Numbered from the stretch's first letter, positions 731-59,322 are shown. The stretch: DNA of 64,000 nt from an uncultured Prevotella sp. (GCA_964433895.1 CAYSSU010000002.1:47822-111821), one strand, 5' to 3'. Notes: generated from the sequence alone by a model not told the origin. Translations and numbers: made by a program.

Positions 731-1690
731 TCAGAATTCAATAGAATATCCGACACCTATATCAAATGTTCGCTCGGTTTCTGTTCCTCTGTAGTGTCTC
801 CATCCATATTCAGCTTTAATTGTAAAATTGGTGATGGGACAGAGGTTGAAACCTAGCGTCCATTTGTTCATTGTTGGTGTTTCTGTATTGAAAACACCGT
901 CATAGCGAGCAAAAGGTATAATAAATAAACCTTTGTATTCTGTAAAAGACATAAGGTCATAGCCAAATTCAATGCCTGCTGATTTTGCAGAGTTTTTGTC
1001 TGAATATATTATTGAACCGTCGGCAATGATACCTTTAAACTGCATCTCGGTGTCTATGGCTCCACAGAATCTGTTACTGCCCAGGAAACTGCTGGCTCCT
1101 ATACGCAGAAATTCAGCAGGATGATAGTCTAATCTGGCAGAACCTCCCAATACCATGGATTCATTAAATGGCAACTTGCCATAAACAAGAATTGATGCGC
1201 TGTATTCCAATTTGCCATAGCCACCCCAGAGCATAGCTCCGCCCTCATGCCATTTCATTGGCAATAGAGCTGCCTCGCTCTCCGGGTCGTATATTGTCAG
1301 AGCCGTTCCCTCGGAGTTTACCTGTCCTACAGGAATGTTGATGATTCCTGCTTTTACATTTATGGCGTTGCTCCACGATTTGTTCAGATAGAGTAAATCT
1401 GTAGTGAAATTGTTCTTAAAGCTGTTTTCCCAAGTTCCGTCTCCGTATAGTCTTTCATATTCAAGTCTGGCATATATGCTCCATCCGTGATTTAAGTTTA
1501 ATTCTCCATCTACAACAATATGAGGAAAATCGATATCTTCACGATTTTCTCCATAATAATTATGTCCATAGTTAACCTCGGTATAGACTGTCCCTGAAAA
1601 AGTATATTGTTCTGTAGAGTCAACTTCAGCAGCTGTAATCTCGCCGGAACTCGCCATCGCAATACATATTGCCACAGTTTTTAAATTCAT
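731..1690 (-). CDS. Outer-membrane beta-barrel (porin-like) protein, function unknown
   Basis: 319 aa. N-terminal signal peptide MNLKTVAICIAMASSGEITA. Gly/Tyr-rich alternating strands. C-terminal ...GVGYSIEF with the terminal Phe typical of OMPs. Confidence 0.7.
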   Translation of the reverse strand: MNLKTVAICIAMASSGEITAAEVDSTEQYTFSGTVYTEVNYGHNYYGENREDIDFPHIVVDGELNLNHGWSIYARLEYERLYGDGTWENSFKNNFTTDLLYLNKSWSNAINVKAGIINIPVGQVNSEGTALTIYDPESEAALLPMKWHEGGAMLWGGYGKLEYSASILVYGKLPFNESMVLGGSARLDYHPAEFLRIGASSFLGSNRFCGAIDTEMQFKGIIADGSIIYSDKNSAKSAGIEFGYDLMSFTEYKGLFIIPFARYDGVFNTETPTMNKWTLGFNLCPITNFTIKAEYGWRHYRGTETERTFDIGVGYSIEF

Positions 1691-1874: not shown

Positions 1875-2280
1875 AATGCTATCTGTGTTTTTTTTCTGTT
1901 TTTATCTGTCATCTGTCATAAATCATCTCGCTCCTCCAGTGTTTATCGGCATTCCGGCTTATGACAGATACTATGACAGATGACAGATAAATGATAAAAA
2001 AGTGCTGAAAATGGCGATTTTCACTAATCTTATAGCGTTTTTATCGTATAGAGGGTGCAATTTTTGGCGTGTTTTTGCTGTTTTTTTTTAGTTTTGTGGT
2101 ATATTGTCTTCAAATTCATTAAATGTATGTTCAAATAATATTGTAACGTCGTAATTATATCACACGTCATTTTAAAATCAGTATAAAGGCTGTATACAAA
2201 GAGTCTCTATGCTTTGTATTCATCGTATTTGTGCTGTATATTCACAATACAAAGCCTTTAGACAACGAGTACAGAAATTA
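1875..2280 (-). repeat. Composite non-coding element, copy A (inverted homolog of 41415-41968)
   Basis: The reverse complement aligns with copy B in two blocks. Module 1 is about 2176-2280 (GTCTAAAGGCTTTGTA...CAGCCTTT). Module 2 is about 1875-2090 (TGCACC...CTGTCATCTGTCATAGTATCTGTCATA...AAACACTGG..GCGAG.TGATTTATGACAGATGACAGAT...AAAAAAAACAC.GATAG). Confidence 0.85.
1902..1990. repeat. Hairpin with 19-bp perfect inverted arms TTATCTGTCATCTGTCATA / TATGACAGATGACAGATAA and a 51-nt spacer
   Basis: Arms are at 1902-1920 and 1972-1990. A further ATGACAGATA copy lies inside the spacer. The octamer TGACAGAT/ATCTGTCA occurs 5 times. Confidence 0.9.
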
Positions 2281-2388
2281 AATATAATTTTCTGTACTGT
2301 TAATTCCAAAGTAAAAGAAAACAAAAAGAGAAATCTATATATAATGTTGTTTTCCTGCATTTTACTTGCACGATTGAATATAAATATT

Positions 2389-2415: not shown

Positions 2416-3786
2416 ATGCTTGAAAATATAGCAAATGGTATAAATGATTTCTTTGCAGCTTTTAGTTCTGCATTGTGGGGATGGCCGATGATAATACTTC
2501 TGTTGGGGACGCATATATTCCTGACAGTAAGGCTGCGTTTTCCTCAGCGTAAGATATTTACAGCCATACGGCTGTCTGTGAGACGTGATAAAAATGCGTC
2601 GGGAGATGTATCGCAGTTCGGTGCTCTGGCAACGGCTTTGGCTGCAACGATAGGTACCGGCAATATTATAGGTGTGGCAACAGCTGTGGCTCTTGGCGGT
2701 CCGGGAGCGGTGCTGTGGTGCTGGCTTACCGGTGTGTTTGGAATAGCAACGAAATATGCTGAAGGATTACTTGCCGTGAAATATCGTGTGACTACCAAAG
2801 ACGGAAGAATGTTGGGCGGTCCGATGTATGCGTTGGAACGTGGTTTGGGATGGAAAAAAATGGCAGTGCTGTTTGCCGTATTCACTTCTGTGGCTTCATT
2901 TGGAATAGGAAATACTGTTCAGGCTAATGCCATAGCCACAATAGCGAATACTACATACGGAGTGCCTACATATATTACCGGTATAGTGGTCTGTGTACTT
3001 GCTGCGGCTGTTATTCTCGGTGGTGTAAAGAGTATTGCCAAAGTTTGCGGAATGCTTGTGCCGTTCATGGCTTTGTTTTATGTGTTGGGATGTGTATATA
3101 TTCTTTTTGTAAACGGTCATTATGTATGGCCGGCACTGGTAATGATTGTGAAGTCGGCATTTACTTCTCAGGCTGCTGGTGGAGGATTCCTTGGGTCTAC
3201 AATAATGTTGGCTTCAAGATATGGCATAGCGCGTGGCTTGTTTTCCAATGAATCAGGATTGGGCTCTGCCCCTATTGTGGCTGCTGCCGCACAGACCCGC
3301 AATCCTGTGAGACAGGCATTGGTATCATCAACAGGGACTTTCTGGGATACTGTTGTGATATGTGCGCTTACGGGACTTGTGATAGTGAGCAGTGTACTGG
3401 CTTATCCTGACATTGATTTTACGAATGGAGCCGGACTGACAACAGCGGCTTTTGATAAAATTCCTTATATAGGAACACCGCTTCTGACGTTCGGATTGCT
3501 GACGTTTGCTTTCAGCACGATATTGGGTTGGAGTTATTATGGTGAGCGTGCCGTGGAATATCTTAAAGGTCACAGATGGATATATGCTTACAGGCTACTG
3601 TATATCGGTGCCGTGTTTTTTGGCAGCGTGATGAACCTTACAATGGTTTGGAACATATCTGACTGTATGAATGCGCTGATGGCAATACCAAACTTATTGT
3701 CTCTGTTGTTTCTCAGTGGTATGCTGGTACACGAAACGCGTAAATATCTCTGGCGAGACAGGCTCGACAGAGATATGGATGAATAA
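2416..3786 (+). CDS. Alanine/glycine:cation (sodium) symporter, AGCS family
   Basis: 456 aa polytopic membrane protein. Carries the AGCS signature region SQFGALATALAATIGTGNIIGVATAVALGGPGAVLWCW. Confidence 0.88.
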   Translation: MLENIANGINDFFAAFSSALWGWPMIILLLGTHIFLTVRLRFPQRKIFTAIRLSVRRDKNASGDVSQFGALATALAATIGTGNIIGVATAVALGGPGAVLWCWLTGVFGIATKYAEGLLAVKYRVTTKDGRMLGGPMYALERGLGWKKMAVLFAVFTSVASFGIGNTVQANAIATIANTTYGVPTYITGIVVCVLAAAVILGGVKSIAKVCGMLVPFMALFYVLGCVYILFVNGHYVWPALVMIVKSAFTSQAAGGGFLGSTIMLASRYGIARGLFSNESGLGSAPIVAAAAQTRNPVRQALVSSTGTFWDTVVICALTGLVIVSSVLAYPDIDFTNGAGLTTAAFDKIPYIGTPLLTFGLLTFAFSTILGWSYYGERAVEYLKGHRWIYAYRLLYIGAVFFGSVMNLTMVWNISDCMNALMAIPNLLSLLFLSGMLVHETRKYLWRDRLDRDMDE

Positions 3787-9151: not shown

Positions 9152-9213
9152 ATCATCTTTAAGTTATTGACAAAATAATAGTTTGTTTTTATTTTGCCAG
9201 GTAACTGTTTTTA

Positions 9214-9377
9214 ATTACCTTTGAATAAGATAAGCTGCATTCGGAAATCCAAAGAAAAATAGATTTTCCTTTGCTATTTCACTCATTTGCATTACCTTTG
9301 AATAAGATAAGCTGCATTCGGAAATCCAAAGAAAAATAGATTTTCCTTTGCTATTTCACTCATTTGCATTACCTTTG
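9214..9377 (+). repeat. Perfect tandem direct repeat, 77-bp period (2 full units plus a 10-bp third start)
   Basis: Positions 9214-9300 are identical to 9291-9377 (87 nt read base by base). Each unit boundary carries ATTACCTTTG, so TACCTTTG -7 boxes fall at 9216, 9293 and 9370. Confidence 0.95.
9370..9377 (+). promoter_or_regulatory. Proximal -7 box TACCTTTG with TTTG -33 element 19 nt upstream
   Basis: TTTG-CTATTTCACTCATTTGCAT-TACCTTTG, 43 nt upstream of ATG 9421. An identical full promoter lies 77 bp upstream (9293-9300). Confidence 0.6.
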
Positions 9378-9420
9378 CGCATGAAAAACAAACTACTATT
9401 TAAATTTTAAAAAAAGGAAA

Positions 9421-13396: not shown

Positions 13397-14212
13397 ATGC
13401 AGAAGTATGCTGATTATATAGAACAGATAGAGATAGACTCTCTCTGGAGTGGTACAAAACATATCATCTGGAATCTGGACCGCAAAGTGAATATACTTAG
13501 TGGAGTGAATGGTGTGGGAAAAAGTACTATATTAAATAAGGTGGTGAAGAGTGTAGCTTGCAATGGCGAATTTCCCAGTCATCTGCTTAAAGGAGTACAC
13601 TTGAAAGTGTATCCGGAAGATGCCAAATGGATTCGGTTTGACGTTATAAGAAGCGTCGACCGTCCGTTGCTTAATAGCAGTATTGTGGAAAAAATGGATA
13701 TGAGTCTCGCCACAGAACTGGATTGGCAATTATTTCAGTTGCAGCGTAAATATCTTGATTATCAGGTGAACATTGGCAATCGCATTATTTCTGCATTGCA
13801 GAGTGGTGAGCCTGATGCTGCCGTGAAAGCCCAGAAACTTAGTGAACCGAAGAAACTTTTTCAGGATATGCTTGATAATCTGTTCAATGATACAGGAAAA
13901 ACTATTGTACGCACTGAAAATGAAATCAGATTCTTGCAGATGGGAGAGGTGCTGGTCCCATATCAACTGTCGGCAGGAGAAAAGCAAATGCTTGCTATTC
14001 TGCTGACTATGCTTGTGGAAGACAATTTGCCATATATGCTGTTTATGGATGAACCGGAGATAAGTTTGCACTTTGAATGGCAGAAACAGCTTATAGGACT
14101 GATATTGAAACTGAATCCTAATGTGCAGCTTATCATGACTACGCATAGTCCGGCTGTTGTCATGGATGGATGGACGGACAAAGTGACAGAGGTTACAGAT
14201 ATTACAGTTTAG
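13397..14212 (+). CDS. Small ABC-type (AAA_21/23-like, SMC/RecF-style) ATPase; AriA-like partner of a DUF4435 protein
   Basis: 271 aa. Walker A GVNGVGKST (13502-13528, K42). ABC signature LSAGEKQ (from 13967). Walker B LFMDEPEISLH (D218 E219). H-loop TTHSP (H250). A short helical insert of about 60 aa separates Walker A from the signature. Confidence 0.8.
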   Translation: MQKYADYIEQIEIDSLWSGTKHIIWNLDRKVNILSGVNGVGKSTILNKVVKSVACNGEFPSHLLKGVHLKVYPEDAKWIRFDVIRSVDRPLLNSSIVEKMDMSLATELDWQLFQLQRKYLDYQVNIGNRIISALQSGEPDAAVKAQKLSEPKKLFQDMLDNLFNDTGKTIVRTENEIRFLQMGEVLVPYQLSAGEKQMLAILLTMLVEDNLPYMLFMDEPEISLHFEWQKQLIGLILKLNPNVQLIMTTHSPAVVMDGWTDKVTEVTDITV

Positions 14213-14279
14213 CATTGAATGTTTTGCTATAGATAATGTGTTGTGAATCTTTAAATAATTTATTGTGTAGTTTTAGATA

Positions 14280-15272
14280 ATGTCAAACAGACTTATAAAT
14301 AATATAACATCCGGATATTTTGAAGCTGCCAACAGAATGACTTCAAAACAGACAAGGCGCAGAATCGTTGCTTATGTGGAAAGCTATGATGATGTGTTTT
14401 TCTGGCGTACCATATTGTCTAATTTTGAAGATAAGACTCGTTACTTTGAAGTGGTATTGCCATCACATGACAATTATCTGGAAAGGGGTAAGAAAGCAGC
14501 CATAGCTGGACTTATAAATGGTGCCGGTAGGGATATGATAGCCTGTGTGGATGCAGATTATGACTATCTGATGCATGGAATTACCCATTCTTCAAGTTCG
14601 GTTCTCAATAATCCTTATGTTTTCCATACTTATGCTTATGCCATAGAGAACTGGCAGTGCTATGCGCCTTCTCTTCATACTGTGTGCGTGGCAATAACAC
14701 TTAATGACCATGATATATTTGATTTTGTGGGGTTCCTGACAAGATATTCTCAGATTATATATCCTTTGTTCGTGTGGCAGATATGGTATGCCAAACATGG
14801 GCGCCAGAGCGAATTTACTATATTGGACTTCAACAGAGTGGTAGACGTGCATACAGATATAAGGAATGTTGAAGATGCCATGGAAAGATTGGATATAAAG
14901 GTAAGACGTAAGGTAAAGGAACTTCGCAGAGAAAATCCTGAAAAATGGGACAGTTTGAACAATGTAAAAGAAGAGTTGAAAAGACTGGGAGTTACACCTG
15001 ATACAACATATCTGTATATTCAAGGACATAATCTGTTTAACAAAATAGTATCTCCACTTGTTGACCGCGTGTGCTCTTCTTTGTTTTCTGAGCGTCAGAA
15101 TGAAATAAAAACACATTCAAAGCATAGTGCACAGATGCAGACAGAGTTGTCTTGCTATGACAATAGTGTGGAGAGCGTAGTGGGAATGTTGAAAAAAAAT
15201 ACGGGCTATATGATGTCACCCGTATTCCTTAATATTTTCAGAGACCTTAAATGTATGTTTCCAGAAACTTGA
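14280..15272 (+). CDS. DUF4435 / Toprim-like (OLD-family nuclease-like) protein; AriB-like
   Basis: 330 aa. Toprim-style acidic motifs YVESYDDVFFW (E34), GKKAAI, ACVDADYDYL (D91/D93/D95), YAIENW. Lies 67 nt downstream of the ATPase gene on the same strand. Confidence 0.72.
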   Translation: MSNRLINNITSGYFEAANRMTSKQTRRRIVAYVESYDDVFFWRTILSNFEDKTRYFEVVLPSHDNYLERGKKAAIAGLINGAGRDMIACVDADYDYLMHGITHSSSSVLNNPYVFHTYAYAIENWQCYAPSLHTVCVAITLNDHDIFDFVGFLTRYSQIIYPLFVWQIWYAKHGRQSEFTILDFNRVVDVHTDIRNVEDAMERLDIKVRRKVKELRRENPEKWDSLNNVKEELKRLGVTPDTTYLYIQGHNLFNKIVSPLVDRVCSSLFSERQNEIKTHSKHSAQMQTELSCYDNSVESVVGMLKKNTGYMMSPVFLNIFRDLKCMFPET

Positions 15273-32304: not shown

Positions 32305-33741
32305 TTGAAAATACAGGAATTCATAGAACGTATATTGGATGAATTTGGTTTTGCTCCTACGGCAGACCAACTTCATGCTTTGGATACTTTTGCCCGTTTC
32401 CTTGCCGACCGTGATACTCATTCTGTTATGGTCCTCCGTGGTAGTGCCGGTACGGGAAAGACATCTATAGCTGGGGCTATGGTAAGGGCTTTTACCAAAG
32501 TGGGACAGAAACTCATTCTAATGGCTCCTACCGGCAGGGCTGCAAAGGTGTTTTCTCTTAACAGCAGACATCCGGCTTTTACCATTCATCGTAAGATATA
32601 CCGTGAAAAAAGCTATCAGGGTATTGGCGGACAATTCAACCTGAATAGCAATATACACAAAAATACGTTGTTCATGATTGATGAGGCTTCCATGATATCG
32701 GGAGGGACCGGCAATGTCGATAATGGAATATTTGGCAGCGGCAGTCTGCTGGATGACCTTATCCAATATGTTTATCAGGGAGATAATTGTCGTATGCTGC
32801 TTGTTGGAGATAAGGCACAGTTGCCTCCTGTGGGTGAAGAAGAGGCTCCGGCTTTAAATGGTGATATGCTTAGTGGATATGGTCTGCATGTCTATCAGTG
32901 TGATCTTAATGAGGTGCTTCGGCAGAGTGAGGAGTCGGGAATACTTTATAATGCTACTGTTATCCGTGGTATGATAACACATGATGAACTCACAAAGTTA
33001 CCTAAAATTCGCTTTTCAGGTTTTGCAGATATTGTGATGATGCCTGGAAATGAAATAGTAGAGAGCATTGCAGACAGTTATTCAACCGTGGGACTTGACG
33101 AGACAATGGTGATAACACGTAGCAATAAAACGGCTATAATATATAATCGGGGCATACGTAATACGATTCTTGACAGAGAGGAATTACTTTCTTCCGGGGA
33201 TATGCTCATGGTGGTAAAAAATAAGTATTTTTCTTCCGATTCTTCTTCAAGAGAGGAAAAGCCTTCATTCATTGCCAATGGCGACAGAGTGAGAGTGGAG
33301 CGTGTGCGTAATATACGAGAAATGTATGGATTCAAGTTTGCCGATGTAGAACTTTCTTTTCCTGATTATGACGGACTAGAGATGACACAGACCGTGATTT
33401 TGGATACTCTCACATCAGAGGCTCCGGCACTTACGCATGAAGAGAATGAACGACTTTATAATAAGGTGATGGAAGATTATGAAGATGTTCCGCTAAAGCA
33501 CGACCGTATAGCCAGCCTTAAACAGGATGATTATTTCAATGCTCTTCAGGTAAAGTATGCATACGCCATAACTTGCCATAAGGCGCAGGGTGGGCAATGG
33601 GCTGATGTGTATATTGACCAGGGGTATATGACAGATGACATGCTTACTCCTGACTATATCCATTGGCTATACACGGCTTTTACCCGTGCTACCAATAAAC
33701 TGTATCTTATAAACTGGCCTAAAACACAGACAGAGGCGTAA
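32305..33741 (+). CDS. RecD/TraA-like ATP-dependent DNA helicase (SF1), TTG start
   Basis: 478 aa. Walker A GSAGTGKTS, Walker B FMIDEASM, LVGDKAQLPPV, C-terminal CHKAQGGQW. In-frame TAG at 32296. The first ATG is only 7 codons before Walker A, so TTG at 32305 (or 32335) must initiate. Confidence 0.85.
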   Translation: MKIQEFIERILDEFGFAPTADQLHALDTFARFLADRDTHSVMVLRGSAGTGKTSIAGAMVRAFTKVGQKLILMAPTGRAAKVFSLNSRHPAFTIHRKIYREKSYQGIGGQFNLNSNIHKNTLFMIDEASMISGGTGNVDNGIFGSGSLLDDLIQYVYQGDNCRMLLVGDKAQLPPVGEEEAPALNGDMLSGYGLHVYQCDLNEVLRQSEESGILYNATVIRGMITHDELTKLPKIRFSGFADIVMMPGNEIVESIADSYSTVGLDETMVITRSNKTAIIYNRGIRNTILDREELLSSGDMLMVVKNKYFSSDSSSREEKPSFIANGDRVRVERVRNIREMYGFKFADVELSFPDYDGLEMTQTVILDTLTSEAPALTHEENERLYNKVMEDYEDVPLKHDRIASLKQDDYFNALQVKYAYAITCHKAQGGQWADVYIDQGYMTDDMLTPDYIHWLYTAFTRATNKLYLINWPKTQTEA

Positions 33742-40967: not shown

Positions 40968-41330
40968 TTAATCCAGATTAGGAATCTTTGTGAGACTGGC
41001 ATCTTCCCACAGTGTTTCCAGATTGTAATATTCTCTAGCTTCGGGCTGAAATATATGTACCATTACGTCTCCGTAGTCCATAGCTACCCATTGATCTGTG
41101 CCAAGTCCGGCAACATTCAATGGCTTTTCCTTGTTTTCTATACGTGCTGTGTCGCCAACAGATTCTGTTATAGCCTCTACTTGTGCCGGAGAATAGCCCT
41201 GACATATAACGAAGTATTTGGCTATTGCACCTTCAATGCCTGTAAGGTTCACGATTATTATGTTTTCACCCTTTTTTTCCTGTATACCTTTTGTTATGGT
41301 ATTTACCAGATTTTCAGTTTCTTTCATCAA
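40968..41330 (-). CDS. rsfS: Ribosome silencing factor RsfS
   Basis: 120 aa. YFVICQGYSPAQV...WVAMDYGDVMVHIF...REYYNLE. Confidence 0.9.
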   Translation of the reverse strand: MMKETENLVNTITKGIQEKKGENIIIVNLTGIEGAIAKYFVICQGYSPAQVEAITESVGDTARIENKEKPLNVAGLGTDQWVAMDYGDVMVHIFQPEAREYYNLETLWEDASLTKIPNLD

Positions 41331-41346
41331 TTATTATTTTAAGGTA

Positions 41347-41354
41347 CAAAGATA
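41347..41354 (-). promoter_or_regulatory. -7 promoter box TATCTTTG for rsfS-ftsH-cdsA
   Basis: Lies 16 nt upstream of ATG 41330 on the minus strand. Confidence 0.55.
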
Positions 41355-41414
41355 AGGTAAACTTATGAAATATCAAAATAAAAAACACTTTTTATAATTC
41401 AGAAAAGCATCACT

Positions 41415-41422
41415 TATTTTTG
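41415..41422 (+). promoter_or_regulatory. -7 box TATTTTTG directly in front of repeat module 1 (no CDS downstream)
   Basis: Lies 8 nt upstream of GTCTAAAGGC (41431). The next 640 nt contain no ORF of 60 aa or more and end at the terminator at 42044-42070. Confidence 0.45.
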
Positions 41423-41850
41423 TACTAGGAGTCTAAAGGCTTTGTACTGTCTGTATATAGCATAAATACTGTGAGTATTCAGCATAAATACAATGAGTAC
41501 ACAGCCTTTGTACAGATTATGTTTGACTTGGACCGATTTTGGTATACACTAATTAATACTTGTTACCTAATCTCTTTACAGATTGTGGAAAGAATTCCTA
41601 AATTCTGTGACATGGTTTTTTCTTAATTCTGTATAGATTATAATTTTCATTTATCAGCGCAGATATACATATTTTCCATAATAAAGTTGTAAACAGATTT
41701 TGATTATCTTCGTTTTTGAAGCAGAAAATGTAATCTTTTTAAGCCATTATATTGATAAATCAAAAAAAATGGAGCAAAAATGCACCTTAAATAGGACCTA
41801 ATATGTAAAAAAACACTATAAAAGTAGTGAAAAACGTCATTTTTTGGCAT

Positions 41851-41937
41851 TAATCTGTCATCTGTCATAGTATCTGTCATAGGCTGTAATGCCTATAAAC
41901 ACTGGGGAAGCGAGGTGATTTATGACAGATGACAGAT
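41851..41937. repeat. Hairpin with 17-bp perfect inverted arms ATCTGTCATCTGTCATA / TATGACAGATGACAGAT
   Basis: Arms are at 41853-41869 and 41921-41937. The spacer carries an extra GTATCTGTCATA and a 6-bp sub-hairpin ATAGGC/GCCTAT. Confidence 0.9.
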
Positions 41938-42043
41938 GAAAATGAAAAAAAACACTGATAGTGTTTCCATAACTTACCCCAAAATTTTAACTTAATTGGT
42001 AAACGAAAAAATGTATTTAAATCAGAATTTAGATAACAAAAAA

Positions 42044-42070
42044 AGCCTACTGAAATTCAGTAGGCTTTTT
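42044..42070. terminator. Bidirectional intrinsic terminator
   Basis: AGCCTACTGA-AAT-TCAGTAGGCT, a 10-bp stem flanked by A7 and T5. It lies immediately 3' of tRNA-Gln (minus strand) and downstream of repeat copy B (plus strand). Confidence 0.8.
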
Positions 42071-42071
42071 G

Positions 42072-42142
42072 TTGGGATACTCGGACTCGAACCAAGAATG
42101 GCAGGACCAGAATCTGCAGTGTTACCATTACACCATATCCCA
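42072..42142 (-). tRNA. tRNA-Gln (anticodon CUG)
   Basis: Folds manually into a 71-nt cloverleaf. Acceptor TGGGATA/TATCCCA, D-stem GTGT/ACAC, anticodon loop TTCTGGT, T-arm CTTGG-TTCGAGT-CCGAG. There is one A31-C39 mismatch at the base of the anticodon stem. No encoded CCA. Confidence 0.88.
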
Positions 42143-59190: not shown

Positions 59191-59295
59191 AACAATCTAA
59201 ATATTAATCAATCAATCCATAAGTCGTATGATTCCGTGAGGAATTGTGCGGCTTTTTTTGGTATCGTTTTTCTTTGATATTTCATTCATTTGCAT

Positions 59296-59303
59296 TACCT
59301 TTG
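59296..59303 (+). promoter_or_regulatory. -7 box TACCTTTG with TTTG 19 nt upstream
   Basis: Lies 19 nt upstream of ATG 59323. The 38-nt block 59267-59304 matches 9341-9378 at 35 of 38 positions. Confidence 0.6.
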
Positions 59304-59322
59304 CCCAAAATATAAAAACACT

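Follow-up and report, generated by a model that had tools for sequence, protein, structure and literature searches.

Introduction

Three kinds of described system come close to the element reported here, i.e., the replication origins of phage satellites, the composite MITEs of Bacteroidales and the gene-less remnants of integrative elements. In SaPIs, the origin lies immediately downstream of rep and consists of 6-12 short iterons, at least two on each side and pointing in opposite directions, to which a self-loading helicase binds through its C-terminal domain, a winged helix (PMC9371898). BrickBuilt, the MITE of Porphyromonas gingivalis, has 1-23 head-to-tail units of 23 nt, and terminal inverted repeats in its leader and tail segments (PMC4596501).

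The element is present in two inverted copies, A and B, in the window, which is the whole 64,000-nt stretch of DNA from an uncultured Prevotella sp. that was analysed. With SaPI/PICI-type origins (SaPI Rep, P4 alpha, VapE/D5 family), it shares short (6-8 nt) iterons, at least two of them per side in opposite orientation, and adjoining A/T-rich DNA. In contrast to these origins, which are found immediately 3' of rep, the element has no adjacent rep or helicase gene, its centre is not A/T-rich as that of SaPI origins is, and it sits in a housekeeping region of the chromosome, in two inverted copies, fused to a second array that we call block 1. A further likeness is to loci beside VapE/D5 genes (L015, L113, L130, L140, L141 and L255-L259), where TGACAG(A) sites have the same layout of two, about 40 nt and three. 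Compared by description, the element resembles BrickBuilt in being strictly intergenic, composite, species-restricted and present in multiple non-identical copies, with an internal array of ~22-23 nt period between other conserved segments, but it has only three phased 9-mers in diverged 22-nt units (PMC4596501).

As for gene-less remnants, copy B is gene-less and lies beside a tRNA gene, much like CIME-type remnants, which derive from integrative elements, are flanked by att sites and have no genes; unlike these, the element has no att direct repeats, and copy A is not at a tRNA. A functional parallel is phage-encoded resistance ('Per') in Lactococcus and Streptococcus thermophilus, in which cloned phage origins serve as decoys. 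Per is an engineered multicopy-plasmid effect, and we know of no natural chromosomal version elsewhere; the parallel is that an origin kept in the host without its initiator could titrate or misdirect the initiator of an incoming replicon. The iterons of RK2 (TrfA), 17-bp sites in oriV, were judged unrelated.

Iteron origins and MITEs are both known, and what the comparison suggests to be new is the combination of an initiator-less origin core, carried in a small dispersed repeat, with a second phased array. We give a probability of about 0.5 to the reading that A and B are a repeated element which carries an origin from a VapE-type mobile replicon but no rep, and on which an initiator acts in trans. 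Such an 'orphan' origin module would descend from a VapE-type phage, a satellite or an integrative element, either as a non-autonomous derivative or as a relic.

Two diverged copies of one non-coding element

Copy A (1879-2295, plus strand) and copy B (41962-41395, minus strand) are homologous in two blocks whose order is kept (Table 1), the likeness being fainter past 2278, on to ~2295. The initial annotation had proposed a non-coding composite at 1875-2280 with an inverted twin 39 kb away at 41415-41968, coordinates that were right to within a few bases, and the twin is recovered both by a MAFFT alignment of A (+) with B (-) and by a repeat finder, which pairs 1889-2001 with 41840-41952 (I1; 113 nt, 88% complementary) and 2176-2303 with 41391-41518 (I2; 128 nt, 73%). 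Within the window, nhmmer profiles, one per block, match the A and B places only (E 1e-35 to 3e-71). Homology begins near 1879, because identity is merely 9/29 over 1850-1878, as against 21/24 over 1879-1903, and it fades past 2263 (24/37 over 2264-2300). Allowing up to 3 mismatches, the 17-mer ATCTGTCATCTGTCATA has 6 matches in the window versus 0.31 expected, while TACAAAGCCTTTAGAC has 7 matches versus 0.6 expected; chance is excluded as the source of the likeness between A and B. Judged from their sequences, A and B appear to be two diverged copies of one ~0.4 kb non-coding repeat in promoter-distal intergenic Prevotella DNA.

Table 1. Coordinates of copies A and B, their parts and their neighbours in the window.
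Feature	Position	Strand	Basis or remark
Porin-like gene	731-1690	-	Upstream neighbour of copy A
Copy A, whole element, ~400 bp	1879..2278	+	Start by homology with B; 1886-2278 by contig ends
A, left iteron pair ATCTGTCATCTGTCATA, two CTGTCA repeats	1904..1920	+	17/17 identical in B
A, centre between iteron sets, 39 nt	1921..1959	+	32/39 identical to B; 51% GC
A, right iteron set TATGACAGATACTATGACAGATGACAGAT, three TGACAGA, opposite in orientation to left pair	1960..1988	+	29/29 identical in B
A, A/T-rich tail of block 2, 30% GC	1989..2095	+	70/96 identical to B
A, small palindrome GTGCTGAAAATGGCGATTTTCAC in block 2 tail	2002-2024	+	
A, spacer of variable length, 25% GC	2096..2175	+	39/80 identical to B
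A, block 1	2176..2263	+	67/88 identical to B
Alanine/glycine:cation symporter gene, downstream of copy A	2416..3786	+	PF01235
rsfS, then ftsH, downstream of copy B	40968..41327	-	PF02410; FtsH domains
Copy B, whole element, ~0.55 kb, between tRNA-Gln and rsfS	41395..41962	-	Alignment, repeat finder, nhmmer
B, block 1, three GCTNNNTAY at 22-nt phase and inverted copy	41431..41518	-	TRF
B, long spacer, 27% GC	41525..41759	-	
B, right iteron set, three TGACAGA	41853..41881	-	
B, left iteron pair	41921..41937	-	
tRNA-Gln(CTG), own promoter and terminator	42071..42142	-	Copy B begins ~110 nt 3' of the tRNA

The element has no credible ORF, as already remarked in the initial annotation: those across it reach 60 aa at most, none is kept between the copies, and the two that were looked up are not on record. 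Nor did an Rfam scan give any family for it, which agrees with the earlier failure to recognise a named RNA; at gathering score tRNA-Gln alone passes, and E-value thresholds add generic miRNA-type hairpin noise, all of it sub-threshold. When plasmid and phage collections were searched by BLAST, the whole element found no similar sequence and the core gave chance-level matches only.

Both copies lie in intergenic stretches (1691-2415 for A, 41328-42070 for B) and have the same orientation relative to their downstream genes, which have their own proximal promoters of the Bacteroidetes TAnnTTTG type, read from the sequence, outside the element. A tblastn search of the 64-kb window with three VapE-like proteins found no VapE/D5-type gene, so no initiator of this kind adjoins either copy, and among the ORFs scanned, ~30 between the copies and five on the flanks, there is no helicase of the VapE/D5 kind, integrase or phage gene. 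It is for want of such a gene in the window that we term the origin-like cluster 'orphan'. The named matches are to housekeeping and transport families (dnaG, alaS, dxs, trkAH, etfAB, ftsH, cdsA). The idea that the 39 kb between the copies might be a mobile element was rejected in view of these housekeeping genes and of the gene order at the copy B end, which is kept in other Prevotella. A chromosomal origin or terminus was likewise rejected, there being no GC-skew switch at A or B.

A candidate iteron cluster in block 2

In copy A, block 2 extends from 1879 to 2095 and opens with a T-rich leader. Each copy contains five TGACAGA/CTGTCA sites, two on the left and three, inverted, on the right, that is, short iterons with at least two per side; the right set of A is scored by TRF as a period-7 array, and the two sets of A are 43 nt apart, hexamer to hexamer. 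The centre between them is not A/T-rich (51% GC in A, 49% in B), and it is the flanks, at 24-30% GC, that provide A/T-rich DNA on both sides of the cluster. Between A and B, the iteron arms are identical at 46/46 bases, versus 123/159 (77%) in the rest of block 2, and under uniform divergence zero changes in 46 arm bases have a probability of ~6e-6. The iteron identity between copies could also come from gene conversion rather than selection.

The TGACAGAT arms, earlier described as a hairpin, are better explained as a double-stranded array of putative protein-binding iterons, and block 2 is thus better taken as a probable DNA iteron cluster than as an RNA hairpin. By analogy, it would be a cluster of the kind that forms the origin core of replicons with a VapE/D5-family (SF3, self-loading) primase-helicase. 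Two further details link it to L015, the origin core of which opens with the same 17-mer as the left arm of A, and where AAAATAGCGATATTCA, just past the iterons, resembles AAAATGGCGATTTTCA in the tail of A.

Elsewhere in the window, one isolated sequence at 33627-33643 comes close to the iteron pair (GCATGTCATCTGTCATA, 3 mismatches); it lies inside an AAA_30/UvrD_C_2 helicase gene (32305-33741) and is probably due to chance.

A variable spacer and a second phased array

The spacer between the blocks is barely alignable and differs in length, ~80 nt in A versus ~235 nt in B, which has 157 extra nt; that of A is, from its composition, a candidate DNA-unwinding stretch. In a JGI contig from the same species (L009, 99.5% identical), the B spacer is interrupted at ~41598 by an IS3-family element: positions 1-1231 of that contig encode an rve/rve_3 transposase, and identity to the window starts at ~41598.

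Block 1 of copy A has the 9-mer GCTNNNTAY at 2189, 2211 and 2233, in exact 22-nt phase, with an inverted copy at 2247, and an outer imperfect inverted repeat (TAAAGGCTGTATAC / ATACAAAGCCTTTA). In block 1 of B, TRF finds a period of 22 (2.8 copies, 41445-41505), and the stretch TACAAAGCCTTTAGAC is identical in A and B (16/16). The block folds better than its shuffles (z = -3.85). Recurring every 22 bp, the 9-mers therefore lie on one helix face, and block 1 has the look of a second array, for a putative DNA-binding protein partner. No counterpart of block 1 was present beside any VapE gene examined, and a block 1 scan of viral contigs returned 0 matches.

TGACAG iterons beside VapE/D5 helicase genes

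A metagenome scan with the arm pattern of block 2 matched two contigs, neither of them with a full copy. Both matches come 35-80 nt after a gene for a VapE-like (PF05272/DUF5906) primase-helicase, counted from its stop codon, and many more CTGTCA/TGACAG sites follow downstream, over ~300 nt; the two helicases are only ~30% identical to each other. At L015, the 17-mer is the same as in the window, and three TGACAGAT sites follow after a centre of 40 nt. An independent scan of viral contigs for three direct TGACAGA yielded 100 loci, 9 of which have a VapE-like gene (tblastn), with two others (L076 and L130) having D5_N/DUF5906 helicases by Pfam. The iterons are within ~1 kb of the helicase gene, in non-coding DNA, in 11/11 such loci, some with an A/T-rich stretch alongside, and in most they begin right past the helicase stop codon, the exceptions being L141, where they are upstream, and L091 and L162, where a methyltransferase-like ORF comes in between. 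A core of CTGTCA-n-CTGTCA, 39-43 nt and two to three TGACAG recurs in L015, L069, L113, L130, L140 and L141 as in A and B, with a centre spacing of 39-42 nt in most phage and satellite reference cores versus 43 nt in the window; in L113, L140, L141 and L015, the A/T-rich stretch is likewise outside the 40-nt centre.

The association was also examined in reverse, using 80 viral loci picked by helicase profile alone and defining a cluster as at least five TGACAG/CTGTCA per 300 nt. Dense TGACAG clusters were found in 5/80, while eight of ten control hexamers gave 0-1 and GTGACA, which overlaps the motif, gave 3. In L176, L178 and L184, the cluster begins right past the helicase gene and flanks an A/T-rich centre. 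The 2+3 layout with ~40-nt spacing is thus tied specifically to VapE/D5 genes, in at least nine independent lineages.

No relative of the L015 helicase was found in viral contigs. Its close relatives occur in small islands that run integrase / (AlpA) / Toprim primase / VapE, which is the organisation of P4/PICI-like satellites, and these islands have the same core, as a GGACAGAT variant, directly 3' of VapE. The 5.5-kb int-to-VapE island of L259 ends with the origin, beyond which lie genes of ordinary cellular type. The L014 helicase has a DUF3874 domain, which Pfam first described from a gene of Bacteroides thetaiotaomicron, and the TGACAG class is therefore probably found in Bacteroidales elements.

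Five Bacteroides/Phocaeicola phages with related helicases have no TGACAG iterons. In a rumen MAG of Prevotellaceae (L042 150-270, minus strand), a VapE-like gene is followed by three ATAGAGGGTT and inverted copies, a cluster that reads as origin-like iterons of a specificity differing from TGACAG. TGACAG is therefore one specificity class among several. The loci in which a TGACAG(A)/GGACAGAT core lies beside a VapE/D5 gene are L113, L140, L141, L130, L076, L184, L176, L178 and L255-L259, and the replicons with the TGACAG core vary widely in base composition, from A/T-rich to the 52-55% GC of int-VapE island loci.

Copy number and search for a parent element

Full copies seen number two only, and contig break-points provide a further view of copy number. 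Among Logan contigs from this strain, those of two assemblies end at 1915 and those of five assemblies from two run series begin at 2249, which is 30 nt inside each end of copy A. In a k=31 graph, a contig breaks k-1 nt into sequence that is present in more than one context, a rule borne out by a Logan contig nearing tRNA-Gln, which ends at 42114, 29-30 nt into the tRNA. From these contig ends and the k-1 overlap, it follows that 1886-2278 is common to at least one other context in the samples, and this is almost exactly the span of A/B homology. A contig that begins at 41553 (L008) similarly puts one end of a shared sequence near 41524, at the upstream boundary of block 1 in B, which implies that the long B spacer is itself repeated elsewhere. 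The contig ends, an indirect line of evidence, fit a multi-copy element of ~0.4 kb, and the extra copies that they imply could belong to other strains or species sampled. The initial annotation had suggested a family under selection rather than a recent duplication; the patchy conservation does indicate constraint on particular motifs and no recent duplication, while a number of copies above two depends on the contig break-points.

Neither a further full copy nor a parent element carrying both blocks was found by nhmmer in ~2 Mb of fetched loci, in which block 1 and the part of block 2 outside the iterons have no counterpart either, bar the AAAATGGCGATTTTCA/AAAATAGCGATATTCA motif, and genome contigs scanned with the block 2 arm pattern gave 0 matches. 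The rsfS loci of ~50 relatives are without both blocks and are too diverged (at most 75% amino acid identity) to define an empty site. Homologues of the symporter gene have contexts that differ from the copy A locus.

Alternative explanations

We find it rather unlikely that the element is an ordinary MITE, with the TGACAGAT arms and/or the block 1 repeats as transposase-binding sites, spread by cut-and-paste or copy-out with a transposase encoded elsewhere, and with a merely coincidental likeness to helicase origins. It does look the part, being small, A/T-rich, strictly intergenic and apparently repeated, with modules rich in inverted repeats and an imperfect terminal inverted repeat in block 1; moreover, Bacteroidales carry composite MITEs with internal repeats of ~23 nt (BrickBuilt; PMC4596501), and the B spacer is the target of the IS3 insertion in another strain. 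However, the inferred ends (1879/1886 and 2278) share no more than a weak match of ~7-9 nt (TTTCTGT), no direct repeat that might be a target-site duplication flanks A or B, the conserved arms are internal rather than terminal, plasmid and phage records hold nothing similar, and a coincidental likeness sits badly with a 2+3 iteron layout tied to VapE/D5 genes in so many lineages. No IS with ends similar to the element was found in the window or in the fetched loci. Another possibility, which we regard as decidedly unlikely, accepts the likeness to VapE-type origins and sees A and B as inactive leftovers, two independent or one duplicated, of satellites or prophages whose genes were deleted and whose origin-proximal end was kept. 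Two elements decaying independently would not both end up with these two blocks in a shared order, and neutral DNA that is 23% diverged should not keep 46/46 iteron bases together with an exact 22-nt phasing; the contig breaks, too, suggest near-identical further copies. Copy B does lie just 3' of tRNA-Gln, a classic integration target, at a site that has been rearranged, as indicated by related Prevotella with an opposite tRNA-Gln and no element, and the last place of the L259 origin in its island would suit such leftovers, but copy A is not at a tRNA, and a possible att scar at copy B was rejected for lack of a direct repeat of the tRNA 3' end.

Two further explanations invoke no mobile element. 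That the repeats are operators for a chromosomal transcription factor controlling the symporter and rsfS-ftsH is very unlikely: phased 22-bp repeats are typical of regulator arrays, and both copies point at the downstream gene, with 120-140 bp between their end and its start codon, but these genes are functionally unrelated, their own promoters are outside the element, and orthologous rsfS loci in ~25 Prevotella species do without it. The initial suspicion of a structured non-coding RNA gene or cis-RNA now seems highly improbable. Better folding than shuffles, seen on both strands (z = -3.1 and -5.2 for block 2, and in block 1 as given above), would fit an RNA, but folding scores favour any long inverted repeat; in the big hairpin, conservation is lower in the loop than in the stem, with no compensatory pattern in a comparison of two sequences; no Rfam family passes the gathering threshold; copy A lies between two divergent promoters; and the same motif elsewhere sits in origin regions. 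Transcripts had been suggested on the minus strand at A and the plus strand at B, a suggestion that found no support, as no conserved Bacteroidetes-type promoter was read in either copy and a sigma-70-type scan gave no terminator. It is the VapE-like layout without a nearby gene that makes A and B look like origin-bearing hitchhikers or relics, not RNA.

How a putative orphan origin might act

Our preferred reading, the origin-bearing element acted on in trans, is worded as a non-autonomous derivative or relic because no initiator gene accompanies A or B, and we do not class the element among the true origins of resident replicons because no rep is adjacent and the centre is not A/T-rich. An element that is resident in the cell or enters it would make the cognate helicase-initiator, the DNA-binding domain of which would bind the iterons. 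Once bound, the helicase could load and start replication on the spot, or it could do no more than be titrated; the iterons would be under constraint because the helicase-initiator supplied in trans still recognises them. A cognate helicase in the species, its binding and the ensuing replication, and the mode of spread are what we infer here, and the element might be parasite, relic or decoy.

A more speculative version, which we hold to be very doubtful, is that initiator-less origin copies scattered over the chromosome are kept to some end, by the host or by a minimal parasite that lives on parasites. They might act, once a VapE-type phage or satellite expresses its helicase, (i) as a decoy, with the chromosomal copies titrating this initiator in a natural 'Per'-like defence or (ii) by firing in situ, in which case the copies would over-replicate flanking host DNA and block 1 might be a further cis site, serving packaging, transfer or recombination, through which a mini-element or adjacent genes are mobilised.

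If the preferred reading of an orphan origin is true, a replication-origin module lives apart from its initiator in a small chromosomal repeat of gut/rumen Prevotella, which would be a new way for cis sites of mobile elements to persist and might influence phage or satellite replication (as decoy or through escape replication) or local genome rearrangement. The '2 + about 40 nt + 3' TGACAG(A) core may in addition be a general and easily searched signature for locating the origins of VapE/D5 replicons, a large and poorly studied class, and it makes a testable prediction on the DNA-binding specificity of their helicases.

The tRNA-Gln locus and other features of the window

The order DUF349 gene / tRNA-Gln / rsfS / ftsH is kept in ~20 related Prevotella/Segatella genomes (L018-L043). 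The tRNA-Gln is opposite in related genomes (e.g., L020 9719-9790), its orientation being as in the window in L030 only, and the DUF349-to-rsfS intergenic length is 916 nt in L020 versus 923 nt in the window. From these arrangements, it looks as if a small tRNA-bearing segment has been inverted, with variable DNA always on the 3' side of the tRNA. Just past the DUF349 gene in related species (L020 9170-9280, L018 5020-5130), a TAnnTTTG-type promoter is followed by ~60 nt, a hairpin and a T-run, a conserved unit that looks like a small RNA gene; none was seen in the corresponding stretch of the window.

At 13397-15272, amid housekeeping DNA, the window has an AAA_21/AAA_15 ATPase gene (271 aa, possibly truncated) adjoining that of a DUF4435 protein, a pair which, going by these domains, would be typical of PARIS-type anti-phage systems. 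Upstream of a CitMHS transporter gene, 9187-9393 consists of two and a half tandem units of 77 nt, with a related 53-nt copy at 59267-59319; their common core, TTTGCATTACCTTTG, looks like a Bacteroidetes promoter module, and the rsfS promoter region (41347-41383) has weak inverted similarity to it.
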